The notes beneath the pieces are model-generated. The model had not been told where the DNA came from and made no database searches. It was given only the letters and a program-made list of their open reading frames with translations. From assembly GCA_949025205.1 (NCBI GenBank), contig CARMXJ010000002.1, forward strand, positions 48 to 64,047: a DNA stretch of 64,000 nucleotides, written 5' to 3'. This document shows, piece by piece, positions 6,597 to 45,769 of the stretch. The first letter of the stretch is position 1; every line of letters begins with the position of its first letter. Origin of the DNA: an uncultured Bacilli bacterium (GTDB lineage: Bacteria > Bacillota_I > Bacilli_A > RF39 > UBA660). Made by a program: the position numbers and the translations under genes.

Positions 6597-6677
6597 GATG
6601 TTTTTGTAAACTATTTTTTATTTTTATTTTTAAGTGGTTTTTATTTGTGTATAATATTTATAGAGGAGTGCATTTTT

Positions 6678-7556
6678 ATGAAGAAAAGGAAATTGAAGAA
6701 AATTGTTTATTTGCTATTATTTCTATTTTGCTTCGTTTTAGTTTTTTTGTTTTTTAAATTGGGAAGGAAAGTAGAGGTAAAAGAAGACAGTCCAAACGAA
6801 GAGACTAAAACACAAGAGGTGGTAAATCCACAAGAGGACCCATTTGTTACAGCTTTAAAAAAAGAAAAATATTATATTGAAGATTATTTGGAACGTTATT
6901 TAAGTTATTCACAAGATAAAGATATTTCTGCAAGTGTTGCGATTCGAAATGTGAATTCTAATTTAGATAGAGAAATGTATACCGATACTGAACAAACCGA
7001 TATAAGTGTGGGAAATTTAATGTTAGTAAATAAGTATTATTATTTAACAGAAGATTTTGAGCCAGATGATTTGGTTACTTTAAATGCAAAATATAATAGT
7101 GGTGCTAATAGTAAGATGCGCAAAGAAGCAGCGGAACATTTTATGGAAATGTCTGATGCAGCTCTTTTGGATAATATTTCTATTAAAAATGCATCAGGAT
7201 ATCGTAGTTATACTTACCAAGTTGGTTTGTATAATCGTTATGTACAAAGGGATGGAAAAGAAGCGGCAGATACGTATTCAGCAAGACCAGGGTATTCGGA
7301 ACATCAAACGGGGTTAGTTTCTGATATTAATATTGTGGATGATAGTTTTGAAAAGACTCCTGCTTTTCGTTGGTTACAAGAAAATGCCTATAAGTATGGT
7401 TTTATTTTAAGGTTTCCTAAAGATAAGGAATACATTACGGGATATAAGTACGAGTCTTGGCATTATCGATATGTGGGAGTAGAAGTTGCTAAACAAATGC
7501 ATGAGGAGGATCTAACTTTAGAAGAGTATTATGCCTATTATGTACGAAATAAATAA
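6678..7556 (+). CDS. VanY/M15B-family D-alanyl-D-alanine carboxypeptidase, membrane-anchored
   Basis: N-terminal TM. SEHQTGLVSDI and ESWHYRYVG motifs match zinc D,D-carboxypeptidase M15B. An AGGAG RBS precedes the ATG at 6678. Confidence 0.75.
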   Translation: MKKRKLKKIVYLLLFLFCFVLVFLFFKLGRKVEVKEDSPNEETKTQEVVNPQEDPFVTALKKEKYYIEDYLERYLSYSQDKDISASVAIRNVNSNLDREMYTDTEQTDISVGNLMLVNKYYYLTEDFEPDDLVTLNAKYNSGANSKMRKEAAEHFMEMSDAALLDNISIKNASGYRSYTYQVGLYNRYVQRDGKEAADTYSARPGYSEHQTGLVSDINIVDDSFEKTPAFRWLQENAYKYGFILRFPKDKEYITGYKYESWHYRYVGVEVAKQMHEEDLTLEEYYAYYVRNK

Positions 7557-7817: not shown

Positions 7818-7893
<76 letters not shown>

Positions 7894-7898
7894 ATAAA

Positions 7899-7975
7899 TG
7901 GCGGTCCCGAAGGGATTTGAACCCTCGATCTTCTGCGTGACAGGCAGACGTGATAGACCGCTACACTACGGGACC
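7899..7975 (-). tRNA. tRNA-Asp (GTC)
   Basis: Anticodon stem-loop TCTGC-CTGTCAC-GCAGA; acceptor GGTCCCG...CGGGACC-G-CCA. Confidence 0.85.
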
Positions 7976-7979
7976 AATT

Positions 7980-8056
<77 letters not shown>

Positions 8057-8072
8057 ATAACTAAAAAATTAA

Positions 8073-8165
8073 TGGCGGAGGAAAAGGGATTCGAACCCCT
8101 GCGCCGCTTGCGCGACCTATCGGTTTTCAAGACCGGTCCCTTCAGCCAGACTTGGGTATTCCTCC
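8073..8165 (-). tRNA. tRNA-Ser (TGA)
   Basis: 93 nt with a long variable arm, anticodon loop CTTGAAA, acceptor GGAGGAA/TTCCTCC-G-CCA. Confidence 0.8.
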
Positions 8166-8308
8166 AGCGACAAACTGATTATATCATAGGACTTTTTTAT
8201 GTGTCAACCGAAAAAATTGGCATTTTATCGTTTTTAGCAAAAAAAGCTTGATTATTTTATTTTTTAATATTATACTTAAAGAGTCTTATATATTTAAGAC
8301 AGTGCCAT

Positions 8309-8397
8309 GCCCAAGTGGCGGAATAGGTAGACGCACAGGACTTAAAATCCTGCGGGTGTTAAAACCCGTGCCGGTTCAAGTCCGGCCTTGGGCACCA
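8309..8397 (+). tRNA. tRNA-Leu (TAA)
   Basis: 89 nt, anticodon stem-loop CAGGA-CTTAAAA-TCCTG, long variable arm, T-arm GCCGG...CCGGC, CCA encoded. The track ORFs 8248-8445 and 8359-8568 overlap it and are spurious. Confidence 0.85.
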
Positions 8398-12040: not shown

Positions 12041-13705
12041 ATGGATAAAGAAAAAGAGAAAAAAAAGACCACAACTTCTTCCCGACAAAATAATACCAAG
12101 AAAAATAATACTAGCAAGAATCAAAATCTGAACCAGAAAAAAACAAATAATAATGTTAAGAAACAGAATGGCAATCAAAAAAACAATGCTGTAAGTAAAA
12201 ATGTCTCTGTTCCTTCTAAAAAGAGTAGTAATAAACAAAGTGAAAGTGCGAAAAAAAATACGGTTGGGGACAGTAACCCTAAAAAGTCCAATGTAGTTCA
12301 AAGAAATGCAAATATACAGGGAAAAAAGACGAATAAGGTAAGTTCTAGTCATTCAGATGTAAAAAAAAATGCAAGCAAAAGTCAAGCGGTGACAAATAAA
12401 AGTCCAAAGAAAAAAACGAATTCTTCTCCAAAATTATCCAATCAAAATGTAGAAAAGAAGAATATTACGCAAAAGAAAACCAAGAAGGTTTTGGAAAATA
12501 AAAATGTAAAAACAGCGATAAAAAAAGAAGCAGAAAATAGAAAACCAAATGTTTCTACTAATTTGCAAAAAGAAATCAAAGAGAAAAAGCCTTTAGAAAA
12601 AGTAAAATTAAAAGAACAAGAGACAACTAACCAAAATATTATTACAACTAAAAGTTTGGATATTGTCAAAAATACAGAAAAAGTATCAAAAGCAAAAAAG
12701 AAAACGATTTCTATTGTAGAAGAACCAAAAGAAGAGATTAAAAAAAAGAAAAAAATATATAAGAAAAAAGTAAATTTTGATACAGCTCAACCGAAAAATA
12801 AAAAAGATGTTAAAGAAGTTTTTGCAAGTAAAAAGAAAGAACAAGAAAAGCAATTAAAGAGTGTTGCAAAGAAACATGTTAATACAAAATTGGTTTGGCT
12901 ATTATTTATTATTACATTTACGGGAGCTTTTGCTTTTTCTACTATCAATATTGTAAATAAGTCGATTGATAAGACAGTTACTTTAAAAGAACAGGAAGAA
13001 ATTGAAGAGATGACAGTAATGGAAGAACTTCCAGAGGATGAGACAAAACAAGAAATTGTAAATGCACCTAAGGAAAATGTGATAAGTGATTATTGGAAAT
13101 ATGTGCGTCTTCCTTTAATGAAAGTTGATTTTAATGAGTTACTAGCAAAAAATGAAGAAACAGTGGCTTTTTTGAAAGTAAATGGAACCAATATCAATTA
13201 TCCAGTTGTGCAAACAAAGGACAATACCTTTTATTTAGACCATTCGTACGATAAAACAAGCAATGATGCAGGATGGGTATTTATGGATTATCGAAATAAG
13301 ATATCTGATTTTGATGACAATACCATTATTTATGCTCATGGAATGACTAGTTTTTCGAGTGAAAATACCACGATGTTTGGTTCTTTACGAAAAATTTTAA
13401 AAAGTGATTGGTACGAAAATACGGATAATTACGTTATTTACTTATCAACACCAACTATTAGCACTTTGTGGCAAGTTTTTTCGGTTTATAGTATTCCTAC
13501 CGAAACCTATTATTTAACCACGAACTTTGGTACAAAAAAATCTTATAAAGAATTTATTAACACATTAGTTGGTCGCAGTGTTTTTGATTTTAATGCCGAG
13601 GTAAATGCAGAAGATAAAATTCTTACTTTGTCTACTTGTTATGATAGTGAAACAAAAGTTGTCATGCATGCCAAATTAATTAAAAAACAGAATTTAGGAG
13701 AGTAG
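12041..13705 (+). CDS. class B sortase with long Lys/Asn-rich N-terminal cytoplasmic extension
   Basis: The C-terminal domain has NTIIYAHG and LTLSTC (TLxTC catalytic Cys) motifs of SrtB. It is preceded by one TM helix (VWLLFIITFTGAFAFS) and about 280 aa of low-complexity K/N/S-rich sequence. Confidence 0.75.
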   Translation: MDKEKEKKKTTTSSRQNNTKKNNTSKNQNLNQKKTNNNVKKQNGNQKNNAVSKNVSVPSKKSSNKQSESAKKNTVGDSNPKKSNVVQRNANIQGKKTNKVSSSHSDVKKNASKSQAVTNKSPKKKTNSSPKLSNQNVEKKNITQKKTKKVLENKNVKTAIKKEAENRKPNVSTNLQKEIKEKKPLEKVKLKEQETTNQNIITTKSLDIVKNTEKVSKAKKKTISIVEEPKEEIKKKKKIYKKKVNFDTAQPKNKKDVKEVFASKKKEQEKQLKSVAKKHVNTKLVWLLFIITFTGAFAFSTINIVNKSIDKTVTLKEQEEIEEMTVMEELPEDETKQEIVNAPKENVISDYWKYVRLPLMKVDFNELLAKNEETVAFLKVNGTNINYPVVQTKDNTFYLDHSYDKTSNDAGWVFMDYRNKISDFDDNTIIYAHGMTSFSSENTTMFGSLRKILKSDWYENTDNYVIYLSTPTISTLWQVFSVYSIPTETYYLTTNFGTKKSYKEFINTLVGRSVFDFNAEVNAEDKILTLSTCYDSETKVVMHAKLIKKQNLGE

Positions 13706-13808
13706 TCTTCTTTTTTTGAAAGGAGCAAAAGGTAAGCTATGTTAAGAATTTATCGTAAATGTCAATAAAAAAATGAATATTTATTGTTAAAAAGTGTCAA
13801 AAAAATAA

Positions 13809-13836
13809 TTGACAATCTTGACAATCCGTCGTATTA
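13809..13836 (+). promoter_or_regulatory. sigma-A-like promoter (TTGACA-16-TATTAT)
   Basis: TTGACA at 13809-13814 and TATTAT at 13831-13836, about 30 nt upstream of the RBS/ATG at 13865. Confidence 0.5.
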
Positions 13837-13864
13837 TAAATGCAGAATAGGAGATAGGAAAAAT

Positions 13865-15169
13865 ATGTTAAATTGGAAAAAAATGCTAGGCTTAACAATT
13901 GCAACTGCTGCTTCATTCAGCATGTATACAAACGTTTTCGCTGCATCAGAACCTATATTACTTGAAGATAATACTACTTTAGGAATTGCTGCAAGTGATA
14001 CTCGTGAAATCGTATTTGCTAATGGAACACCAATTACAATTGAAGCTAGAACAAATGAAGCTGGAGAAGAAGTACCTGGAGCTGTCATTAAATATTATTG
14101 GGGAGGGCAACAAGAAAAAATAACTGTTTCAGAAGATGCTACCATTTTTGGTGGAAGTCATAATAATGCTGAAGAAATTAATAGTACTTCTATTACAATG
14201 AATGGTGGTCAAGTTGCTCAAATTTATGGTGGAGGCTTACATACTAGTAACGTAAATTGGGCAAATATATATGTATATGGTGGAGAAGTTGATTTTGTTT
14301 TAGGTGGTGGAGCAGCTTATTGGGCTCGTACACATTGTAGCGATTACGAAAATATAGCGATTACTGCTGAAAATAAAGCTAATTCTAAAAACGTTGTAAA
14401 TAATACCCATGTAAGCATTCAAGGCGGAAAAGTTAAACTTGCTTATGGTGGAGGAGAATCTAGTGCTTATACAAAATATGGTACTTTATCTATTGGAGGT
14501 AGTGCCGAAGTAGTGCAAGCAGTCGCAACTGGTTCTAATGGATTTATGGATAGTGCATCTGTAAACGTTGATGGAGGTACTATTGGTATTCTTTCTTTAG
14601 GAAATCGTGGATTTATAAATGATGCCTCTGCTTACATTTCAGGAAATGCTAATATAGAAACGGCTTATTTAGGGGCAGATGCAGATGATGCTAAAAATAA
14701 TGCAATCATTAATTTGGCTAGTTTGTATGTTTATGGCGGTCATATTGGAACTTTAAAAGATGGAATTAATCAAGCTGCAGATAAGATGACTTTTGTAACA
14801 GCCGTTGAGGGTGCTATTGAAAATATGAGTGTATCTGATACTGTAACAAAACAAAAATTTTATACAGTAACTTTTATTGGGGAAGATGGAGAATGGGAAG
14901 ATGCTCTTATAGAAGGAACTCCTTTAAAAGATTGGTTCTCTGAAGAATTTTTTGAAGAATATGAATTATTAGATGAAGCTGGAAATAAAATTGACCCTGA
15001 AACACTTGTTACAGCAGATATGACTGTTAAGATTGCAAAAATTAGTGCTGAAGATAATAAAGCCCCTGCAGCACCTGAAACTTATGATAATACCTATACA
15101 TTTATAGGACTTGGGGTTTTAAGTCTATGTGGACTTGGAATTGCTACTAAAAAATATTTAACAAAATAA
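13865..15169 (+). CDS. secreted beta-helix-like surface protein with C-terminal sorting-signal-like anchor
   Basis: Signal peptide MLNWKKMLGLTIATAASFSMYTNVFAASEP. Repeated YGG/GGG motifs suggest a parallel beta-helix. C-terminal APETYDNTYTF followed by the hydrophobic IGLGVLSLCGLGIA and a KKYLTK tail. The start is at the ATG with an AGGAGA RBS; the track ORF starts at 13784. Confidence 0.6.
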   Translation: MLNWKKMLGLTIATAASFSMYTNVFAASEPILLEDNTTLGIAASDTREIVFANGTPITIEARTNEAGEEVPGAVIKYYWGGQQEKITVSEDATIFGGSHNNAEEINSTSITMNGGQVAQIYGGGLHTSNVNWANIYVYGGEVDFVLGGGAAYWARTHCSDYENIAITAENKANSKNVVNNTHVSIQGGKVKLAYGGGESSAYTKYGTLSIGGSAEVVQAVATGSNGFMDSASVNVDGGTIGILSLGNRGFINDASAYISGNANIETAYLGADADDAKNNAIINLASLYVYGGHIGTLKDGINQAADKMTFVTAVEGAIENMSVSDTVTKQKFYTVTFIGEDGEWEDALIEGTPLKDWFSEEFFEEYELLDEAGNKIDPETLVTADMTVKIAKISAEDNKAPAAPETYDNTYTFIGLGVLSLCGLGIATKKYLTK

Positions 15170-15310: not shown

Positions 15311-16492
15311 ATGTATAGAAAAACGTATGCATGTATAGATGGAAAGATTTTAGAAGAAAATACAAAAGAAATAATAAAGAAATATAATCATTATCAATAT
15401 TATTTTGGAGTTGTGAAAAACAATGCGTATCATCATGGTATTCGAGTGGTGCAAAATTTAATTAAGGAAGGTATAAACTACTTAGCGGTTTCCTCTTTAG
15501 AAGAAGCTTTGGAAATTCGTAAATATAATGTGGAGATACCTATTTTGGTTTTAGAACCTATAAACTTAGATTATATAGATGATGCTATAAGCAAAAAAAT
15601 TACGTTAACTGTGGATAGTTTGGATTATCTAAAACAGTTAAATAAAATGGAACTTGCTTATTCTTTGCTTATTCATTTAAAAATAGATTCTGGAATGAAC
15701 CGCTTAGGCATTAAAACTCGAAAAGAGTTAAATGATGTTATGAAGTGGATAAGTAAAAACGATAAGTTGTATTTAGAAGGGATATATTCTCATTTTGCAA
15801 CGACGGGAGTTCATGATATTTATTACGATAAACAACTTTCTACTTTTAAGGAGATTACAATGGATGTTGATTTAACAACGATTCCGATTGTTCATTTAGA
15901 CAGAAGTTTAACCCTTGTTACCCACGAAAAATTGGATTTTGTCAATGGAGTGCGTTTGGGAATTGTTTTATTTGGCTTTAGTGGCAGTCGAAAAAAAAGT
16001 ACGGGCATTAAAAATGCTTTACGAGAAATGAAGAGAAATTGGTATTTAAAAAGACACTCTGTTAGTAAAACGATTTTGGAAAATGATTTAAACTTGCGTA
16101 CAGCTTTTTCTTTGTATTCAGAGGTGATTTCGGTACGAAAAGTTTTAAAAGGCGAAGTGGTTGGTTATAATGCTACTTATAAAGTAAAAAATAGTGGGTA
16201 TATCGCAACACTTCCTGTTGGATATGCCGATGGGGTTACAAAAGAATTTGGGTGTGTTGTGATTCATAAAAAAAGATTTCCGATTGTAGCGGATTCTATG
16301 GATATGATTATGGTACTTGTAGATAAATCTGTAAAATGCAAAGATAAAGTAGAGATTTTTGGAGATACTATAAGTATTAGAGAAGTAACGAGTAAATTAG
16401 GAATAAATGCATATCATTTGTTTAACCAAATCAGTAATCGAGTACCAAGAGTGCATATGGAAAGTGATGAGGAGTTTGAAGTCAAATACTAG
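15311..16492 (+). CDS. alr: alanine racemase-family PLP enzyme
   Basis: VVKNNAYHHG (PLP-Lys motif), HLKIDSGMNRLG and PVGYADG motifs. A roughly 30-aa insertion between the YG and the second domain is unusual. Confidence 0.8.
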   Translation: MYRKTYACIDGKILEENTKEIIKKYNHYQYYFGVVKNNAYHHGIRVVQNLIKEGINYLAVSSLEEALEIRKYNVEIPILVLEPINLDYIDDAISKKITLTVDSLDYLKQLNKMELAYSLLIHLKIDSGMNRLGIKTRKELNDVMKWISKNDKLYLEGIYSHFATTGVHDIYYDKQLSTFKEITMDVDLTTIPIVHLDRSLTLVTHEKLDFVNGVRLGIVLFGFSGSRKKSTGIKNALREMKRNWYLKRHSVSKTILENDLNLRTAFSLYSEVISVRKVLKGEVVGYNATYKVKNSGYIATLPVGYADGVTKEFGCVVIHKKRFPIVADSMDMIMVLVDKSVKCKDKVEIFGDTISIREVTSKLGINAYHLFNQISNRVPRVHMESDEEFEVKY

Positions 16493-19619: not shown

Positions 19620-19696
19620 GGGCGCTTAGCTCAGTTGGTTAGAGCACCTGCCTTACAAGCAGGGGGTCATAGGTTCGAGTCCTATAGCGCCCACCA
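19620..19696 (+). tRNA. tRNA-Val (TAC)
   Basis: Anticodon stem-loop CCTGC-CTTACAA-GCAGG; acceptor GGGCGCT...AGCGCCC-A-CCA. Confidence 0.85.
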
Positions 19697-19708
19697 TTTA
19701 TTTTTTTT

Positions 19709-19784
19709 GCCGACATAGCGTAATTGGTAGCGCAACTGACTTGTAATCAGTAGGTTGGGGGTTCGATTCCCTCTGTCGGCACCA
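19709..19784 (+). tRNA. tRNA-Thr (TGT)
   Basis: Anticodon stem-loop ACTGA-CTTGTAA-TCAGT; acceptor GCCGACA...TGTCGGC-A-CCA. Confidence 0.85.
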
Positions 19785-19792
19785 TTCATTTT

Positions 19793-19876
19793 GGAGGGAT
19801 AGCGAAGTGGTCAAACGCGGCAGACTGTAAATCTGTTCCTTCGGGTTCCATGGTTCAAATCCATGTCCCTCCACCA
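19793..19876 (+). tRNA. tRNA-Tyr (GTA)
   Basis: 84 nt with a long variable arm; anticodon loop CTGTAAA; acceptor GGAGGGA...TCCCTCC-A-CCA. Confidence 0.85.
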
Positions 19877-19889
19877 TTTCTTAATTTAT

Positions 19890-19965
19890 TGCCTCGTAGC
19901 CAAGTGGTAAGGCATCAGACTTTGACTCTGACATTCCGGTGGTTCGAACCCACCCGAGGCAGCCA
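19890..19965 (+). tRNA. tRNA-Gln (TTG)
   Basis: U1-A72 start (TGCCTCG...CGAGGCA-G-CCA); anticodon stem-loop TCAGA-CTTTGAC-TCTGA. Confidence 0.8.
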
Positions 19966-19977
19966 TTTTTAATTTTT

Positions 19978-20053
19978 GATCCGCTAGCTCAGTTGGTAGA
20001 GCATTTGACTTTTAATCAAAGGGTCTTGGGTTCGAATCCCAAGCGGGTCACCA
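19978..20053 (+). tRNA. tRNA-Lys (TTT)
   Basis: Anticodon stem-loop TTTGA-CTTTTAA-TCAAA; acceptor GATCCGC...GCGGGTC-A-CCA. Confidence 0.85.
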
Positions 20054-22414: not shown

Positions 22415-22491
22415 GCACCCATAGCTCAATTGGATAGAGCGCTAGACTACGGATCTAGAGGTTAGGGGTTCGACTCCCTTTGGGTGCACCA
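22415..22491 (+). tRNA. tRNA-Arg (ACG)
   Basis: Anticodon stem-loop CTAGA-CTACGGA-TCTAG; acceptor GCACCCA...TGGGTGC-A-CCA. Confidence 0.85.
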
Positions 22492-22543
22492 TTTAAATTT
22501 TTTGTAGCATTTTTTTAAAATGATGCTATAATATAGTATGTAT

Positions 22544-22620
22544 CGGGAAGTGGCTCAACTTGGTAGAGCACTTGGTTTGGGACCAAGGGGTTGCAGGTTC
22601 AAATCCTGTCTTCCCGACCA
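22544..22620 (+). tRNA. tRNA-Pro (TGG)
   Basis: Anticodon stem-loop CTTGG-TTTGGGA-CCAAG; acceptor CGGGAAG...CTTCCCG-A-CCA. Confidence 0.85.
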
Positions 22621-23455: not shown

Positions 23456-24244
23456 TTGAGTAGGGTATTAAAGAATGCAAGGAATCAAATTGTCCGTAAA
23501 TATAATTTTTTTATTCATAAAGGAGTAGATGTGGTAAAAGAGAAAAATAAAATTTCGGAAATTCTTTCTCATAGTGATGGTGTTGTATTTTTTGTTGGAA
23601 AAGAAGAGAATACTTTTAATAAAAAAGAAAGTTATGGAAATTTTGTTATTTTGGAGCATGAAAATGGTTATTTTACTTTGTATGCACATTTAGAAGAAAT
23701 TTTTGTAACAGTAGGGGAAAAAGTAATGCAGGGAGATATTATTGGAGTTATGGGAGCAAGTGGAACAAAACATAGTCATTTACATTTTGAAGTTCGAAAT
23801 GTAAAAAATAAACATATTAATCCTACAAAGTATTTAGATGCGGATTTACCAAAAAATAAAGATAGAACAACGATTCGTTATCAAGCATATGATAATATAG
23901 AAAAAAAATGGCTACCTCTTGTAAGTGGTAAAGAAAGTTATGCTGGTGTATTTGGGAATCCTATTGGGGCTATATTATTGTATTGTAATAAAAATATAAA
24001 GTATTTCGTTTATCAAAAAGGGCAATGGGTTTTGTATGAAACAAATAAGAATGAAAATCAAGAGATTCATTATACGAATATTTCAGGTTTTAAAATAGAA
24101 AGCGATAGTGAAGTATTGAAATATCGTGTGCATTTTTTGAATTCTTCTTGGAGTTCATGGGTGTGTTCAAATAATAAAGAGAGTATTTTTAGTAAAGGAA
24201 AAGTAATAGATGCCATACAAATAAAGTTGATGGAGGAGGACTAG
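23456..24244 (+). CDS. M23 (LytM-type) peptidase domain protein with C-terminal extension
   Basis: HENGYFTLYAHL...GASGTKHSHLHFEVR contains the HxxxD/HxH zinc-ligand motifs of M23 peptidases. Confidence 0.6.
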   Translation: MSRVLKNARNQIVRKYNFFIHKGVDVVKEKNKISEILSHSDGVVFFVGKEENTFNKKESYGNFVILEHENGYFTLYAHLEEIFVTVGEKVMQGDIIGVMGASGTKHSHLHFEVRNVKNKHINPTKYLDADLPKNKDRTTIRYQAYDNIEKKWLPLVSGKESYAGVFGNPIGAILLYCNKNIKYFVYQKGQWVLYETNKNENQEIHYTNISGFKIESDSEVLKYRVHFLNSSWSSWVCSNNKESIFSKGKVIDAIQIKLMEED

Positions 24245-30402: not shown

Positions 30403-31683
30403 CTATTTGCATTTTTTGATGATTATTTTTTGGACAAAAAAGTTATCATAAATGCTTGTATCTTTGGAAAAAGTATCACTGTGTTTAATAATTTGTTGAA
30501 ATAAATATAAACCGATTCCACGATTTTTTCCTTTGCTGCTAAATCCCTTCTCTTCCAAACGGTCAATGGAAATATGCTTAAACGTATTGGCAAGAACGAT
30601 TACAATATTTTCATCTTCTTGGTAAAGATGCAAGCTTATCATTTTTTCTTTGCTTTCTATACTGGCTTCTATAGCGTTATCTAAAATAATTCCTAAAAGG
30701 GTATACAAATCATTTTTTTCTTGAGTATTTAAGAAGTCTTCTTTTAGTTTTGAAATATCTTCTGAAATATAGACTTCTACCTCAATATTTAACTCTTTCA
30801 TTTTTAATAATTTAAAATTAATCAATCCTTTTACTCCTGCAATAGGAATGTTTTTTATATCGGTTAGCCAGCGATAATGGTTTACTGCTTTTTCTTCTAA
30901 AATAGAATCAATATACTCTTGTAATTCTTTTTGATTTTCGTTTGCCATTCCTTTGATAATAATTAGTTTATTTTTGTATTCGTGAATGAAACTTTTGTAC
31001 TCTGTTAAAAGACCTTCTGTAAATTCAGAATATTCTAAAATTTTTTGGTAATTTTTATTTAAAATGTTGTTTTTATCTTTTTCTTGAAATAGGAAAAAAA
31101 TAAGATTAAAAATAATAAAAAATAAAAATAAATTTAAAATATTTTGCATACAAAAATAAGAGGAATACGTAGGAATACGTATCATAATAATAAACAAAAG
31201 CCCTAGATTGTTAAAAATACTTTTGGTAAGTGTCTTGGGGGTTTTATAGACATGAGGGTTAGTAATATATTCTTTTAAAGATTGTGCAAATGTAAAAATA
31301 AAAATACTAGACAAAATAGAAGTAAAGATAATCATCGTATAATTAGAAGGAATGGTAATATTTAAAAAATATAAAATTGCTTTTAAAATCACTTCAAAAG
31401 AAAAACGAATCATGTATAAGATGACAAGTAGAGTAATGAGGGTTTGGGTACTTTCAGTGCATTTTAAAAAGAGAAATAAAATGGTAAGTAAAATATAAAA
31501 GGTAAAAGCAATGAGTGGCTCTGTATAAATAGCATTAATCGCATATAAAAGAGCAAATAAAAAAATATTAGCTATAGTAAGAAGTTTTTTTCTTTTTTTT
31601 GACGGAAATAAAAAGTGAGTAATAAAAAAAAGATAGGTAAAGAGCCATAGTCCTAAACCAAATTCATACCATATCATATTCAT
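30403..31683 (-). CDS. AgrC/ComD-like membrane sensor histidine kinase (HATPase_c_5)
   Basis: About six N-terminal TM helices, then a GHKL ATPase domain (NAIEA...GKNRGIGL). It overlaps the upstream LytTR regulator by 20 nt. Confidence 0.75.
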   Translation of the reverse strand: MNMIWYEFGLGLWLFTYLFFITHFLFPSKKRKKLLTIANIFLFALLYAINAIYTEPLIAFTFYILLTILFLFLKCTESTQTLITLLVILYMIRFSFEVILKAILYFLNITIPSNYTMIIFTSILSSIFIFTFAQSLKEYITNPHVYKTPKTLTKSIFNNLGLLFIIMIRIPTYSSYFCMQNILNLFLFFIIFNLIFFLFQEKDKNNILNKNYQKILEYSEFTEGLLTEYKSFIHEYKNKLIIIKGMANENQKELQEYIDSILEEKAVNHYRWLTDIKNIPIAGVKGLINFKLLKMKELNIEVEVYISEDISKLKEDFLNTQEKNDLYTLLGIILDNAIEASIESKEKMISLHLYQEDENIVIVLANTFKHISIDRLEEKGFSSKGKNRGIGLYLFQQIIKHSDTFSKDTSIYDNFFVQKIIIKKCK

Positions 31684-32410
31684 CCCCCTTTGTTATTTTT
31701 TCTTTTAAGATTTTCTTTTTGTTTCTAGAAAGCAAATCGGTAGAGCCATTGTTTATAAAATAAATTCGATTGTTTGTAAAATCGATTCTTTCAATATTTT
31801 TTAAGTTTACGATACAGCTTTGATGGGTTTTGAAAAAATAAGGTACACTTAAAAGTTCCGTTTCAATTTTGGTAATGCTTTGTTTTAATTTAAAAGTATC
31901 GTGTTTGGTAATAATCGAAGTATAGTTGTGATTTAAATCTTTTTCAAAATACAAAATATCCTGATAGGAAATTTGATAGAGTTCATTGTTATAAGTAAAT
32001 TTGAAAGATTTATGGCGAGAGTGAATACGAAGGGCTACTACGATTGCTTCTTCAATCTTATCATCAATGCATTCCTTTTTTGTTATAAAATCTAACATCA
32101 GTATTTTGCTTGTATACCCTTCTTCTTTAAAACATTCATGAGAGGTAATCATAATCATTTGGCTTTCCCAGTCTCCCGTGTTTCTTATTTCTCTAGCTAA
32201 ATCAAGGCCAGATTTTCCTGGAACTTCCATATCCAAAAGATAAATATTTTTTCCAAGTAAATCGTCTAATTTTTTCTTGGCTTCTTTGGTGTATTTATCG
32301 ATAACTAAAATTTGGTAATGGTCTTTTTTATGCCCTATCACTCTTAATATGGCTTTTCTGTAATTTTCTTGCCATTTTTTACTGTCTTCGTAAATTATAA
32401 AGTTAATCAT
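31664..32410 (-). CDS. LytTR-family response regulator
   Basis: Receiver domain (LLDMEVPGKSGLDLAREI) plus a C-terminal LytTR DNA-binding domain. The start is the ATG at 32410, preceded by GGTGAAAAG; the track ORF extends to 32590. Confidence 0.8.
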   Translation of the reverse strand: MINFIIYEDSKKWQENYRKAILRVIGHKKDHYQILVIDKYTKEAKKKLDDLLGKNIYLLDMEVPGKSGLDLAREIRNTGDWESQMIMITSHECFKEEGYTSKILMLDFITKKECIDDKIEEAIVVALRIHSRHKSFKFTYNNELYQISYQDILYFEKDLNHNYTSIITKHDTFKLKQSITKIETELLSVPYFFKTHQSCIVNLKNIERIDFTNNRIYFINNGSTDLLSRNKKKILKEKITKGDEYDMV

Positions 32411-32614
32411 ATTCTTTTCACCTGATTTTATTCGTACTTTGCTAGTGTAGCATAAAACAAAATTTGCTCTTTTTTTTCGTTTTTCTAAAAATATACTTTT
32501 TTGTCTAAATAGGTCTTTTTTAAATTTAAAATATTTTCCTTTTTTCTTTAGGCGGGCTAAAAAAATGAGTTGAAGTGGGATTCTTTTCAAGGTAAAATAA
32601 AGGTAGGTGATACG

Positions 32615-33458: not shown

Positions 33459-33487
33459 TAAACTCTCTGGATTTGAGAGTTTTTTGT
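33459..33487 (+). terminator. rho-independent terminator
   Basis: Perfect 8-bp stem aaactctc/gagagttt, 7-nt loop, T6. Confidence 0.75.
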
Positions 33488-33569: not shown

Positions 33570-33597
33570 TTGACTTTTTTATTTGCTTGTGTTAGTA
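33570..33597 (+). promoter_or_regulatory. candidate promoter of the surface-protein cluster (TTGACT-16-TGtTAGTAT extended -10)
   Basis: TTGACT at 33570-75 and an extended -10 TGnTAGTAT at 33589-97, about 115 nt upstream of the 33714 ATG. Confidence 0.4.
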
Positions 33598-33713
33598 TAA
33601 ATGCCAATTTAAAGAGAGACAGCATGCGATTAAGGAAAAAAATATTGGAAGAAATATAAAATTGGCTTAATGTAATTAACAATTTTATACAAAAAGAAAG
33701 AAAGGTTTAAAAA

Positions 33714-35894
33714 ATGAAAAAAGAAGAAACTCCAAAAAATGTATTTGAAAAAAAGAATGCTATTAAAAAGGCATTTGCTGGTATAGGTGTTGCAGCTCTT
33801 TTATCTTTAGGAGTAATAGCTTGTAATAAATATAATGAAAAAAGAGCAGAAAATATTTATACTCCAAGTTTAGAAGACTTAATTGGTGATGTAGAAGATG
33901 AAGAACAAATTGTAGTTGTAGATGAACAACCAGTTGAAGAAGAAATAGAAGAATTTGCTGAAGAAAAAGAAGAACTAGAAGAAGAAATCGAAAGTGACCA
34001 TCCATTTGATGCTATTGATTTATCTAATTATGAAGGATATAGTCTTGATGAAGCTTTAAAATCTATTGGATTAGAACCTACCCCAGAACTTAAAGCAGAA
34101 CTAGCAGCGTATCTTGAAATAGATCCATATCTTAAAACTGCAGAACAAAATATCCGTATTTTACAAAGTCTAGGTGCTACAATAAAAGTTGGTGGCGTTG
34201 AAAAAGAAGCTATTAAAAATGAAAATGGAGAATTTGTAGTTGTTCCTATTGATGAAGAAAAAAAGAAACAAGAGGGAAATGGAGTTGACTCTGATAATAG
34301 GCAAAATGAAGGAGCTTCTAACGAAACTACAACTCCAGAAAATCAAGGACCAGAAAATAATTCGGAAACTGCCAATAGAGATTCTAATTCATCTAGTGAT
34401 AGTAGTGATTCATCTTCTAATAATGGCAGTGATGATGAATTTGATAATAATAACGGTAATACCAATACTGGTAATAATCAAGGAACTGATAATCCCGGAA
34501 ATAACAATAACGACAATAATAATGGAAATACCAATACCGATAATAATCAAGGAACTGATAATCCAGGAAATAATGATAATAATGACAATACAGAAGAAGA
34601 AATTAAGACTTATGTTGAGTTATATCATAAATGGGTTGATAACCAAGATGGTACATGTTCTTTAGAATCTATTCAACAATGTAACGAAGATGGAAGTATC
34701 AAAACAGTTATTATAAAAACACAAGCTCATGCAATGGGAGAATGGATAACAAATGAAGCTGGTACAGAAAAAACAAGAAAATGTGAAAATGATTGTGGAT
34801 ATAAAGAAATAGAAGAAATAAAGAAACCAGAACCAGTGCAACATGAGCATAATTATGTATCAGTTCCAGGGTCACAAAGATATGTAAACAACGGAGATGG
34901 AACACATTCCTTAGTAGAGAATCAAGAATGTAATGTAGAGGGATGTCCTGAAGACGAAAAGATAAAAACAGATGTTGAATTATCAAGAGAGAACCATACA
35001 ATGGGAGAATGGGTAACAAATGAAGCTGGAACAGAGAAAGAAAGAAAATGTACAGCAGAAGGTTGTGGATATAAAGAAACAGAAGAAATAAAGAAACCAG
35101 AACCAGTGCAACATGAGCATAATTATGTATCAGTTCCAGGGTCACAAAGATATGTAAACAACGGAGATGGAACACATTCCTTAGTAGAGAATCAAGAATG
35201 TAATGTAGAGGGATGTCCTGAAGACGAAAAGATAAAAACAGATGTTGAATTATCAAGAGAGAACCATACAATGGGAGAATGGGTAACAAATGAAGCTGGA
35301 ACAGAGAAAGAAAGAAAATGTACAGCAGAAGGTTGTGGATATAAAGAAACAGAAGAAATAAAGAAACCAGAACATTCTCACATATATGTTGATGTTGAAG
35401 GAACAGGACATTATGTAGATAATGGCGATGGAACACATTCTTGGGTGGTAGATCAAGTATGTAATGAAGCAGGATGTCCAGAAGATGAAAAATCTAAGAA
35501 AGACGTAGTAGTTTCTACTGATGCTCATACACCTACTGATATTAATCAAGCAAATGGTAAATATAAAGATGTATGGTGTCCTACTTGTGGAACTTATTTA
35601 GAATATGATGTACCTGTTAGTTCAGTTACAGCAACAGTTCATGAAGAAGGACATGTTGATCCGGTTCAAGAATCTAAATTTAATGATGCATATTTAGAGG
35701 CAATTATAGAAGAAAATAATGTAGCAGAAGATAATTATGATTACCCAGTTTCAGAGGATATGATGCATTATGATTCAGAAGAACAACCTTTGAATAATGA
35801 TTATCCTGTATCTGGCGATGGAGATACTCCAGAAAACGAAGAAGAATTAATTCTAGGACGTAGATTAACACCAAAATCTTATTATAGAGCTTAA
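33714..35894 (+). CDS. lipoprotein with low-complexity N/G/T region and tandem 90-aa four-cysteine repeat modules
   Basis: Signal peptide with lipobox VIAC. Acidic region, NNNGNTNT low-complexity region, then about 4 modules (2 identical) containing CNVEGC and CTAEGCGY pairs. Confidence 0.75.
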   Translation: MKKEETPKNVFEKKNAIKKAFAGIGVAALLSLGVIACNKYNEKRAENIYTPSLEDLIGDVEDEEQIVVVDEQPVEEEIEEFAEEKEELEEEIESDHPFDAIDLSNYEGYSLDEALKSIGLEPTPELKAELAAYLEIDPYLKTAEQNIRILQSLGATIKVGGVEKEAIKNENGEFVVVPIDEEKKKQEGNGVDSDNRQNEGASNETTTPENQGPENNSETANRDSNSSSDSSDSSSNNGSDDEFDNNNGNTNTGNNQGTDNPGNNNNDNNNGNTNTDNNQGTDNPGNNDNNDNTEEEIKTYVELYHKWVDNQDGTCSLESIQQCNEDGSIKTVIIKTQAHAMGEWITNEAGTEKTRKCENDCGYKEIEEIKKPEPVQHEHNYVSVPGSQRYVNNGDGTHSLVENQECNVEGCPEDEKIKTDVELSRENHTMGEWVTNEAGTEKERKCTAEGCGYKETEEIKKPEPVQHEHNYVSVPGSQRYVNNGDGTHSLVENQECNVEGCPEDEKIKTDVELSRENHTMGEWVTNEAGTEKERKCTAEGCGYKETEEIKKPEHSHIYVDVEGTGHYVDNGDGTHSWVVDQVCNEAGCPEDEKSKKDVVVSTDAHTPTDINQANGKYKDVWCPTCGTYLEYDVPVSSVTATVHEEGHVDPVQESKFNDAYLEAIIEENNVAEDNYDYPVSEDMMHYDSEEQPLNNDYPVSGDGDTPENEEELILGRRLTPKSYYRA
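34821..35374 (+). repeat. perfect 270-bp tandem direct repeat (2.05 copies) inside the lipoprotein CDS
   Basis: 34821-35090 and 35091-35360 are identical nucleotide-for-nucleotide by direct comparison. Diverged partial copies flank on both sides. Confidence 0.9.
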
Positions 35895-35943
35895 TTTCTT
35901 CAATAGAATTTATAATTCTTAAAATGAAAGATGGTGAAAAGAA

Positions 35944-36558
35944 ATGAAAAAGGGCAAAAAATGGTATAAGTCATTTAGTAACTGGCTAATCATTGTGGCT
36001 TGTGTCATACTAATACCTGTATTGGTAATGAATATAAGTATTATGTTTCAAGCAAAAAAGAATGAAAGTGCTGTCCCAAGTATATTCGGATTTAAGCCAT
36101 TCATTGTTCTATCTGGCTCAATGGAAACAGAAATACATAAAGGTGATATGATTATAACCAAAATAGTAGACCCTGCATCACTAGGAGTAGATGATGTCAT
36201 CGCTTTTAGAGATGCAGAGGATACTGTTACTACACATAGGATTATCGATGTTGTGGTAGAGGAAGGCCAAACTTACTTTATTACAAAGGGAGATAACAAT
36301 AGTACCCAAGATAGAAACTTGGTAGAACTAAGTGATGTAGAAGGTTTATATATAGGAAGAATTCCTGGGATTGGTTCGATGATGAATAGTTTATCAGAAC
36401 CAACAACAATTATTATTGTTGTGCTTGGAATTACGATAATATTTGTAATCGGCTTTACAATTTCTAGTAAGAAACAAAGAGAAGCCGAAAGAAAAGAATT
36501 CTTAGAATACAAAAGAATGAAGGAACAACAAGAAAATTCTAAGGAAAATAAAAAATAA
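35944..36558 (+). CDS. SipW-type (S26B, ER/archaeal-type) signal peptidase I, paralog 1
   Basis: SGSMETEIHKGD (catalytic Ser), THRI (His) and KGDNN motifs. C-terminal TM plus a K/E-rich tail. Confidence 0.8.
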   Translation: MKKGKKWYKSFSNWLIIVACVILIPVLVMNISIMFQAKKNESAVPSIFGFKPFIVLSGSMETEIHKGDMIITKIVDPASLGVDDVIAFRDAEDTVTTHRIIDVVVEEGQTYFITKGDNNSTQDRNLVELSDVEGLYIGRIPGIGSMMNSLSEPTTIIIVVLGITIIFVIGFTISSKKQREAERKEFLEYKRMKEQQENSKENKK

Positions 36559-36695
36559 GTCCTAAAGACTTAAGTAAATTCGGTAAATGGCCTTATAGGC
36601 ATTTACATAGATGTGGAAGTAACATAACTTCCTGTCGCATAACAGATAAGTTATGCAATATAAAAAGAATTACTTAGGAGGGGAGGTGAAAAAGA

Positions 36696-37730
36696 ATGAA
36701 AAAGAGAACAATGGTACTAGGTGGTTTATTAATGGCAGTTGCTATTACTGGTTATTCAGTAAGTGGAACTTATGCTAAATACATTTCTGGTATTGATGAA
36801 ACTGATGAAGCAAGAGTTGCTAAATGGTCTTTCGGAGAAGGATTAAATGAAGCGGGTGTTGCAGATTTATTCAAATCATCTTATACACTTAAGAAAGATG
36901 GATGTACTGGAACTAAATGTGATTACACTTATGTTGTATCAAGCGATACTTCTGATGTTATTGCTCCAGGAACAAATGGTGAATATACATTCGAAATTAA
37001 TGGTGAAATGGAAACAAATTACATTTTAAATATTGCTATTGATGGTGATAATACTTATAATACTGTAACATTAACAAATGGTGAAATACTTTCAGCTAGT
37101 GATTTAGGTTCTTTAAATGCTAGCGACATTGCTTATAATCCATTACGTTTTAGATTATATAAACATAATATTGATTCAACAACTGGTACAGATAATACTA
37201 CTGATACTGATAAAGGTTATTGGTTAACTTATGATGAGTTTATCGCTGCTTTCAAGAAAATGTTCAATCCAGGAACAACTACTACATCATCTAAGAAAGT
37301 TAACAATCCATTATATGTACAAGCGGCCAATAATAATATTGATTTAGGAACTTATACTATTGAATGGGCATGGTCATTTGATTATGCTGATTTAGCAGCT
37401 AACTATAATGCATCAACATCAACTAAAACTCAAGATGCAGTTATAGCTAATGCACATGCAGCTCAAATAGGAATTGGTTCATTAACTACTTCAAAGAAAG
37501 TAGAAGCTTATACTGCAACTATTAATAAATATGATACTTTATTAGGTAACTCAATTATTGATGGTGTAAAAACATACAATGGTATGTCAGATGCTACTAC
37601 TACAGCTGCAAAGAAGAAAGAAGAATATAAGAAGTCTGGTGCATATAAAAACGTTAGCTTAAATGTTAACATTAGTGCTACACAAACTACTTGTGAAGCA
37701 GGTACATTAGTTAGTGATTGTACTAAATAA
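36696..37730 (+). CDS. secreted TasA/camelysin-like protein with SipW-cognate signal peptide
   Basis: N-terminus MKKRTMVLGGLLMAVAITGYSVSGTYAKYISGIDETDEARVAKWSF resembles the TasA/CalY N-terminal region (GGGTWAAFND... / GGGTFAYFSDKE...). T/S/N-rich mature region. Confidence 0.6.
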   Translation: MKKRTMVLGGLLMAVAITGYSVSGTYAKYISGIDETDEARVAKWSFGEGLNEAGVADLFKSSYTLKKDGCTGTKCDYTYVVSSDTSDVIAPGTNGEYTFEINGEMETNYILNIAIDGDNTYNTVTLTNGEILSASDLGSLNASDIAYNPLRFRLYKHNIDSTTGTDNTTDTDKGYWLTYDEFIAAFKKMFNPGTTTTSSKKVNNPLYVQAANNNIDLGTYTIEWAWSFDYADLAANYNASTSTKTQDAVIANAHAAQIGIGSLTTSKKVEAYTATINKYDTLLGNSIIDGVKTYNGMSDATTTAAKKKEEYKKSGAYKNVSLNVNISATQTTCEAGTLVSDCTK

Positions 37731-37835
37731 TGAATGTAAATTAACTAGGAAGTTTAATTTAACTTCCAAATAAGCCTATGATAGTTCGTAGGTTTATTTG
37801 AAAATTAAATTGTATGGCAAAGGAGGGGTACAGAT

Positions 37836-45769: not shown

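Follow-up and report, generated by a model that had tools for sequence, protein, structure and literature searches.

A gene cluster with two SipW-like signal peptidases in an uncultured Bacilli bacterium: a candidate sortase-independent, membrane-anchored surface fibre

We analyzed a 64,000-nucleotide stretch of DNA from an uncultured Bacilli bacterium (GenBank assembly GCA_949025205.1, contig CARMXJ010000002.1, positions 48 to 64,047 of the forward strand), hereafter called the window, which carries a cluster of seven genes, p1 to p7, with two SipW-like signal peptidases and their putative substrates. By analogy with known fibres, we consider it somewhat probable that this cluster encodes a sortase-independent, membrane-anchored surface fibre, the assembly of which would be gated by the two dedicated signal peptidases. 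All seven open reading frames (ORFs) lie on the + strand, where an earlier note on this DNA had placed them. The genes, their predicted cleavage sites (the arrow marks the cut; TM, transmembrane; aa, amino acids) and the domains of p4 are as follows.

33714..35894, + strand: p1, 726-aa putative lipoprotein with Cys/His-rich repeats of ~90 aa
35944..36558, + strand: p2 (peptidase-A), archaeal/endoplasmic reticulum (ER)-type (SipW-like) signal peptidase I with two TM helices and a charged C-terminal tail
36696..37730, + strand: p3, proposed major (shaft) subunit with a Sec signal peptide and a beta-sandwich core
36768..36782, + strand: codons T25-Y26-A27↓K28-Y29, predicted peptidase-A cleavage site of p3
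37836..41672, + strand: p4, 1278-aa proposed anchor/stalk subunit
38673..40130, + strand: five Cadherin-like (PF12733) repeats of p4, residues ~280-765, with approximate boundaries read from the sequence
41085..41582, + strand: C-terminal domain of p4, residues 1084-1249, homologue of the p3 core, proposed to act as acceptor only
41685..42512, + strand: p5 (peptidase-B), SipW-type signal peptidase with the same catalytic residues as p2 and a long Lys-rich C-terminal tail
42523..43137, + strand: p6, proposed minor (initiator or tip) subunit with a hyper-conserved N-region, a TM segment and a pilin-like beta-sandwich
42619..42633, + strand: codons T33-Y34-S35↓R36-Y37, predicted peptidase-B cleavage site of p6
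43166..45769, + strand: p7, 867-aa protein of an orphan family with a TM segment or signal peptide, third candidate substrate
43280..43294, + strand: codons S39-H40-S41↓K42-Y43, predicted cleavage site of p7 (reads ESHS↓KYW)

The two small secreted proteins p3 and p6 have an N-terminal motif in common, TY(A/S)↓(K/R)YIS…AR.AK(W/F), as the earlier note had described. The corresponding region reads TYAKYISGIDETDEARVAKW in p3 and TYSRYISGLQEKDDARSAKF in p6, where the segment following the predicted cut is p3-like. Mature p3 is predicted to start at K28 and would read KYISGIDETDEAR. At the cleavage site itself, we found T-Y-A↓K-Y in 64/64 p3 orthologues (by position T-Y-A 100%, K 98%, Y 98%) and T-Y-S↓K/R-Y in 79/79 p6 orthologues. 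Profile-profile comparison with hhalign aligned the p3 and p6 families over ~75 N-terminal residues (93-95% probability, E 2e-8 to 3e-7). Judged by sequence, the motif is shared by p3 and p6 far beyond chance.

In p3, the predicted cut is followed by the conserved segment KYIS..D.ARVAKW and then by the core motifs DLF, APG.G.Y, WxW, DT.LG and ATQ. Searched exhaustively with HMMER, the p3 profile matched 5,424 clusters (50% identity) at E<=1e-3, 3,806 of them at E<=1e-10. The distant members carry the signature SVSGT(Y/F)AKY..S...D.ARVAKW...DLF...APGT.G.Y...W.W...DT.LG...ATQ, and in 40 distant relatives from this unbiased search the Thr, the Ala and the Tyr at position +2 are invariant, with Ala directly before the cut (P1) in 40/40. 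Of the 14 columns that are invariant across the broad family, five fall in the post-cleavage segment, which is the most conserved part of these proteins; otherwise they are only ~27-35% identical. In the monomer model of p3, residues 1-54 have a predicted local distance difference test score (pLDDT) below 50 and the post-cleavage segment is unplaced. No Pfam or NCBIfam match was obtained for p3 or p6, and no curated family was found in these two collections for p3 or its distant relatives. Where the source names members of the p3 family, they are called "hypothetical protein"; one of them comes from a metagenome-assembled genome (MAG) of the Clostridia.

The minor candidate p6 is best conserved in its presumed signal peptide (residues 1-35, window 42523-42627), which holds 13 of its 16 invariant columns. 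This part includes a 20-residue cytoplasmic N-region with the conserved positions M1, L4, L5, S7, F10, L14, K16, W17 and Y21. Such a pattern suggests that the N-region is retained, is cut late or is recognised by the peptidase tail. We also noticed that the precomputed annotation of a p6 homologue (P0090) lists PF28357, an accession absent from the Pfam copy searched, so part of the p6 family may already belong to a Pfam entry of very recent date.

A related cleavage signature, P-x-(T/S)-x-(S/A)↓(K/R)-(Y/F), stands at the end of the TM segment in 75 of the 77 proteins at the position of p7, which marks p7 as a third candidate substrate. Taken together, p3, p6 and p7 have a hyper-conserved site (S/T)-x-(A/S)↓(K/R)-(Y/F) where the signal or TM segment ends. 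Directly after the p6 gene, 76/78 loci have a large ORF. The core of p7 (~residues 1-650) is conserved; the acidic tail that the earlier note had pointed out is indeed there (residues 661-867) and is lineage-specific, varying among orthologues. Profile search with the p7 family gave no match among Protein Data Bank (PDB) sequences, Pfam searches of 24 p7 orthologues nothing consistent, and comparison of p7 with p3 and p6 no relation beyond the signal and cleavage region.

We found that both peptidases are members of the archaeal-type signal peptidase I family TIGR02228 (p2 90.0 bits, p5 71.3 bits; curated cutoff 51.85), the class that contains SipW. Against NF046067, the NCBIfam equivalog for SipW proper, they scored 107.8 and 71.2 bits, both under the cutoff of 190. 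Thus, the earlier label "SipW" fits as to the type of peptidase and its intact catalytic residues but not as to the equivalog, and p2 and p5 appear to be SipW-like proteins and not SipW orthologues. The two share 31% identity. Ser59 (in SGSME), His98 (in THR) and Asp117/Asp123 are kept in at least 95% of 138 sequences from both peptidase lineages. In this class, catalytic Ser and His (plus Asp) reportedly take the place of a Ser-Lys dyad, as Tjalsma et al. 2000 are said to have described. Hydropathy windows placed the TM helices at residues 8-26 and 149-167 of p2 and at residues 1-19 and 131-149 of p5, and both lineages have the two-TM topology of SipW-like enzymes, with an N-terminal TM helix and a second one after the catalytic domain. 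The conserved Ser, His and Asp together with this topology argue that p2 and p5 are active enzymes and not chaperones of the SipA/LepA kind, and both are predicted to be catalytically intact. The charged cytoplasmic C-terminal tails noted earlier on both paralogues are present; they are of low complexity and vary in length among orthologues.

The residue at P1 appears to track the preceding peptidase gene, with Ala after peptidase-A and Ser after peptidase-B. It is Ala in 64/64 p3 orthologues, Ser in 79/79 p6 orthologues and Ser in 74% of p7 orthologues, and this systematic difference fits two catalytic specificities. In metagenome loci, the first gene after the second peptidase had Ser at P1 in nine cases and Ala in four (Fisher tests). 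The p3 figures are free of pattern selection, having been drawn from the genome loci and the unbiased HMMER search.

The large protein p4 had been described earlier as a TM-anchored protein with Big_2/cadherin repeats. Its N-terminus has a charged region, a TM helix (residues 18-36) and then a lipobox-like LLITSC(SC)TS, and Pfam found PF12733 in five stretches (E 4.6e-58, best at 576-665), but Big_2 was not detected at E<=0.1. The orthologues in related loci also contain PF12733 and keep the N-terminus, with its charged region, a poly-Ile/Leu helix, "LLITSC(SC)TS" and "(F/L)(F/W)G(K/R)IG.LF". The C-terminal domain of p4 is related by hhalign to the p3 core (94.7%, E 5.7e-8; family comparison 96%, E 3.8e-9); it aligns to the p3 profile from position 50 or later and has the motifs DLF, PG.G.Y, WxW and DT.(L/I)G, without the TYAKY and ARVAKW segments. 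Profile comparison revealed no relation between the conserved N-terminal segment of p4 and the N-terminus of p3. In simpler clusters, slot 2 is occupied by a p3 homologue of ~218 aa, which carried the motif in 0/34 cases. Slot-1 proteins align to the p3 profile from position 1; all 40 slot-2 proteins have a charged segment and a TM helix and align only from position >=40 (median 65). On these comparisons p4 is, as read from its sequence, an integral subunit paralogue, anchored at its N-terminus by a membrane or lipid anchor and carrying a p3-like domain at its far end. The large proteins are therefore not merely interleaved between two modules, as had been assumed, since p4 has this p3-like domain and p7 a cleavage signature.

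The arrangement is widespread. We identified the p6 family in 79 species-level genomes, each of them a gut MAG from mouse, rabbit or ruminants that bears the label Bacilli, Tenericutes or Mollicutes. The order peptidase-A, p3, p4, peptidase-B, p6 was found in every sufficiently long locus, in ~60 species; in the genome loci, the best match of the first peptidase was always p2 and that of the second always p5. The cassette occurs in at least two chromosomal positions, either beside rimP-nusA, as in the window, or between rplQ and parA. A scan of metagenomes gave 80 loci, many from human-gut and rumen assemblies, and simpler two-peptidase versions dominate these contigs. In this independent sample, a SipW-type peptidase lies immediately upstream of the p3 gene in 50/52 loci and a second peptidase follows downstream within 4.5 kb in 34/40 loci, so the pairing of peptidases with motif-bearing proteins proposed earlier is well kept. 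The neighbourhood survey speaks against the local duplication that the earlier note had suggested: two peptidases are the norm across the p3 family, and this layout is probably ancestral for it. A cluster of the same logic with short subunits was found in GCA_017456665.1 (L089/L090; a Clostridia MAG, GC content 0.41), in the order peptidase, p3-like protein of 257 aa, p3-like protein of 284 aa, peptidase, p3-like protein of 174 aa, 251-aa protein and >750-aa protein; the system is thus not confined to low-GC Bacilli. In the literature searched, including work on SipW in gut bacteria and pilins and on adhesins of RF39/Tenericutes, we found no description of the cluster layout or of the motifs GTYAKY and ARVAKW, in agreement with the earlier remark that the architecture matches no described system.

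On both sides of the p3 gene lies strongly structured intergenic RNA, which might serve in partial termination, stabilisation or processing.

37748..37799, + strand: two stable hairpins directly 3' of the p3 stop codon, the second with a U-rich end

These hairpins have a folding energy of -24.8 kcal/mol (z -6.9). Equivalent structures follow p3 in each of the 62 related loci tested (median -27.5 kcal/mol over ~86 nucleotides (nt), median z -6.2), and the p2-p3 spacer (36559-36695) is also structured, with a median z of -3.4 across related loci; z values for these spacers in the 62 loci refer to mononucleotide shuffles. The hairpins after p3 are a candidate partial terminator or messenger RNA stabiliser setting an excess of p3 over the downstream proteins, and the structured spacers fit p3 as an abundant structural subunit.

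The small proteins had been called TasA-like, and this homology was not borne out by any sequence method. Neither p3 nor p6 matched PF12389 (Peptidase_M73) at E<=0.1, nor did ten distant p3 relatives at E<=1; all matches of a TasA search carried PF12389. Scans of p1-p7 with Pfam and NCBIfam gave no TasA, camelysin or SipW-cognate model. The SipW-cognate signal models (TIGR04088 and the related TIGR04089/04090) were not matched by full proteins (E<=0.1) or N-terminal fragments (E<=10), the presence of these models in the library being unconfirmed. The p3 and p6 family profiles had no match among PDB sequences. A profile of the TasA/camelysin family, built from a TasA sequence verified against PDB 8aur, gave hhalign probabilities of 0.5% for p3 (E 0.13), 0.1% for p6 and 0.1% for the C-terminal domain of p4, and the last strand alone aligned ("...TATQ" versus "...EATQ"). 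In fold searches, with 5of1 and 8aur as the TasA jelly-roll references, TasA matches were sub-threshold or non-specific. One of them, a sub-threshold top match in Foldseek, is besides the cleavage-site pattern the sole pointer to TasA. The earlier note had let its proposal hinge on similarity to TasA/camelysin or to the SipW-cognate signal family, and, formally, these negative models and profiles mean that at the level of sequence models such similarity is lacking. Its comparison with the SipW-cognate signal region survives in part: the pattern G-T-aromatic-A↓x-aromatic is the same as in TasA, but the signal models were not matched. The TasA family has the invariants G-T-W-A↓A-F, with A28 as mature N-terminus in PDB 8aur; p3 has G-T-Y-A↓K-Y. 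According to PMC10269814, the aromatic residue at P2' makes TasA a poor substrate of LepB-type peptidases.

Readings of the cluster as a sortase-dependent or type IV pilus were ruled out, because no LPXTG C-terminal sorting signal was found in p1-p7 or in any of 1347 ORFs of related loci, and no type IV prepilin motif (G↓F/M-T-L-x-E) in the first 60 residues of p1-p7. There is also no sortase gene in the cluster.

The mechanism that we propose is modelled step by step on TasA, BsaA and archaeal bundling pili. Each substrate would be exported by Sec and stay tethered through its signal peptide until cleavage frees a conserved N-terminal segment of ~20 residues, KY(I/T)S..D.ARVAKW, which could then enter the following subunit's beta-sandwich and act there as donor strand. 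Peptidase-B would mature p6 and perhaps p7 (Ser↓Lys), starting the fibre as initiator or tip, and peptidase-A would mature p3 (Ala↓Lys) at the membrane for elongation, making p3 the abundant shaft. The C-terminal domain of p4 would accept a strand but could not donate one, and would for that reason end growth and hold the fibre on the cell, with the cadherin-like stalk of ~1000 residues being long enough to cross the wall. The window also encodes a homologue of the sporulation protein YunB, a VanY D-Ala-D-Ala carboxypeptidase, an alanine racemase and an M23 peptidase (1906-2637, 6645-7556, 15311-16492 and 23456-24244), and the host looks like a walled, possibly spore-forming member of the Bacillota, despite the labels Tenericutes, Mollicutes or Mycoplasma given to related MAGs. 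In such a walled host, the long stalk would carry the base of the fibre through the wall. A wall-less host, as the label "Tenericutes" would imply, was ruled out on account of the alanine racemase, VanY, the M23 peptidase, YunB and a sortase-domain protein in the window. The anatomy of the cluster fits donor-strand fibres, with a repeating subunit that is most conserved in its post-cleavage segment, a minor subunit carrying that segment on a different core (p6) and an anchored paralogue without the segment. More tentatively, and with more doubt than conviction, we put forward that the cluster represents an unrecognised class of pilus of Gram-positive gut bacteria (human, mouse, rabbit and ruminant gut), using neither sortase nor chaperone, in which two site-specific SipW-type peptidases (Ala↓Lys-Tyr and Ser↓Lys-Tyr) would license donor-strand polymerisation, with p6/p7 as initiator, p3 as shaft and p4 or the short slot-2 homologues as acceptor-only, membrane-anchored terminator. 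As part of this doubtful wider proposal, the anchor might have expanded in the present clade into a cadherin-like stalk of 800-1700 residues.

Several observations weigh against the fibre model. Similarity to TasA/camelysin is missing, the SipW-cognate signal models are unmatched, and polymerisation itself is postulated by analogy. The signal peptide of p6 is its best conserved part, which a simple cut-and-discard scheme does not explain, and the post-cleavage segment of p7 is unlike that of p3 and p6, so that a strand-donor role of p7 is doubtful. The P1 statistics for slot 1 and for p6 are partly circular, since the metagenome loci were picked with a pattern containing GT[YF]AKY and one of the two genome-scan patterns contained TYS. 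Moreover, in some lineages the second peptidase is nearer to the first type than to the second, so the A/B specificity may not be strict everywhere. The model is at its weakest in the polarity of the fibre and in what it assigns to p7.

Other explanations have to be set against these points. The p3 protein might form free fibres of a released extracellular matrix scaffold, with p4 and p7 as independent adhesins that simply use the same operon and peptidases. In its favour, the nearest precedents by function, tapA-sipW-tasA and sipW-bsaABC, are matrix systems, the cleavage-site pattern is that of TasA and no sorting signal ties p3 to the wall, but we think this unlikely, given that p4 and all 40 short slot-2 proteins combine a donor-less p3-homologous domain with an N-terminal TM anchor and that BsaA oligomers, too, have been reported to be surface-anchored before release (PMC11580942). 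Alternatively, there might be no polymer at all. The three substrates would then be ordinary secreted or surface proteins with sites (Lys at +1, aromatic at +2) refractory to the housekeeping peptidase, for which the dedicated SipW-type cleavage of aromatic-P2' sites provides a precedent (PMC10269814). The analogical basis of polymerisation and the lack of a significant match of the p3 fold to a fibre subunit agree with it. We nonetheless regard it as improbable, and equally so its corollary that the conserved N-terminal segment is a tag for binding the wall, the membrane or a partner: it leaves unexplained why a TM-anchored paralogue without exactly this stretch has been conserved in one slot, why the stretch itself varies least within so divergent a family, and why the p3 gene has expression signals typical of an abundant structural subunit.

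The second peptidase could, furthermore, be mainly regulatory or act as a non-catalytic assembly chaperone like S. pyogenes SipA/LepA. The charged cytoplasmic tails of both peptidases would suit such a role, the tail of B. subtilis SipW reportedly being regulatory (as Terra et al. 2012 are said to have found). A further precedent is S. pyogenes SipA, a signal-peptidase-like protein essential for pilus polymerisation (PMC4049620). However, the catalytic residues are conserved in both lineages, the tails are variable and of low complexity, and P1 of the downstream substrates differs systematically, which makes this explanation highly improbable. We retain the fibre model as our preferred interpretation of the cluster.

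The cluster is co-directional and runs from terminator to terminator, in keeping with the earlier description. Its genes are separated by 49, 137, 105, 12, 10 and 28 nt from p1 to p7, and a purine-rich, Shine-Dalgarno-like stretch lies 5' of every start, weakest at p1. The remaining features are listed here.

33460..33482, + strand: upstream boundary, terminator-like hairpin of the preceding DUF5698/DUF2179 gene (Pfam)
33570..33598, + strand: candidate operon promoter 5' of p1, TTGACT-17-TAGTAT with a TG extension, a consensus match only
34728..35373, + strand: 270-nt tandem repeat within p1, 2.4 copies, 96% matches/identity
45913..45931, + strand: downstream boundary, bidirectional terminator-like hairpin followed by a T-run

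Promoter-like sites across the region are not enriched over shuffles. The tandem repeats of p1 encode Cys/His-rich modules (HxH...CxxEGC...CxxEGCGY), and its lipobox reads VIAC with Cys37. The protein is poorly conserved. A large ORF occupies its position in 45/61 related loci, often with similar CxxC-rich modules and lipoboxes and otherwise little conservation; membership of p1 in the system is uncertain.

Upstream of the cluster, the - strand (30403-32590) encodes an agr/com-like two-component pair, made up of a histidine kinase of the GHKL type and a LytTR response regulator; both were left out as dedicated regulators because the related loci L001-L004 lack them at this position. Between the cluster terminator and rimP, the window has a 220-aa ORF without Pfam match (46016-46678); L001-L004 also have an ORF there, of 187-249 aa and without annotation. 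The window has a single sortase-domain gene (12041-13705), which encodes a 554-aa protein with a C-terminal sortase domain. It is followed by a 461-aa ORF without Pfam match, and the two (12041-15169) may form a separate module for anchoring surface proteins. The window further holds three tRNA clusters with 12 tRNA genes, at 7818-8397 (two divergent arms), 19620-20053 and 22415-22620.

If the proposed model holds, many uncultured gut Firmicutes, including human-gut lineages, would display an adhesive fibre that current annotation misses, all components save the peptidases and the cadherin repeats being labelled "hypothetical". Beside sortase pili and type IV pili, Gram-positive surface fibres would then have a third logic of assembly, and the TasA/BsaA principle would reach beyond matrix scaffolds to pili that are polar, anchored and made of several subunits. 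There would also be a natural case in which two paralogous signal peptidases with distinct site preferences control the order of assembly. The invariant motifs VSGTYA↓KY and VITYS↓KY together with the gene order offer a simple signature for annotating thousands of loci and may also aid the choice of candidates for host-adhesion studies.

The cluster resembles the B. subtilis tapA-sipW-tasA and B. cereus sipW-tasA-calY operons for biofilm fibres in that a dedicated ER/archaeal-type peptidase is encoded beside its substrates. Like TasA, p3 combines the cleavage region G-T-aromatic-A↓x-aromatic with a last strand "...(F/V)x(F/V)xA(T)Q". In the TasA operon, the major subunit is a small beta-sandwich, the freed N-terminus of which serves as donor strand, and TapA shares the signal type and nucleates assembly. 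TasA operons have one peptidase; the present cluster encodes two, both under the SipW equivalog cutoff, and three substrates with the motif. To our knowledge, the membrane-anchored donor-less paralogue has no counterpart in TasA systems.

Also comparable is the C. perfringens operon sipW-bsaA-bsaB-bsaC, in an anaerobic Firmicute, where SipW is followed by paralogous subunits and then by a large accessory protein (PMC11580942; PMC7395162). There, a disordered N-terminal segment of BsaA has been proposed as donor strand, and heteropolymers of the paralogues have been suggested (PMC11580942; PMC7395162). In the model put forward for BsaA, SipW cleavage is coupled to assembly at the membrane: the newest subunit, still tethered, first takes up the strand offered by the growing oligomer and is then cut (PMC11580942). 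In contrast to the cluster described here, the Bsa operon has one peptidase, BsaC has a VWA domain and needs type IV pilus proteins for secretion, and a TM-anchored donor-less paralogue is not described. An Asn-Lys isopeptide bond, formed with a catalytic Glu, locks BsaA. The BsaA/TasA set comprises 2,172 members (PMC11580942).

The archaeal bundling pili AbpA/AbpB are likewise chaperone-free donor-strand fibres, AbpA featuring a jelly-roll subunit and a signal-peptidase-I site, and AbpB is a larger, multi-domain partner proposed as initiator or adhesin (PMC9245690). Both TapA (PMC10151520) and AbpB (PMC9245690) have been proposed as strand-donating initiators. Unlike here, no dedicated peptidase gene lies near AbpA/AbpB, and comparisons of profile and structure recognisably connect AbpA, but not p3, with TasA. 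Chaperone-usher pili differ in that the present cluster has no chaperone or usher genes. Overall, the proposed SipW-gated logic of fibre assembly is known in kind, and what sets the cluster apart are the two peptidases, the three substrates, the anchored donor-less subunit and the protein families without curated assignment.

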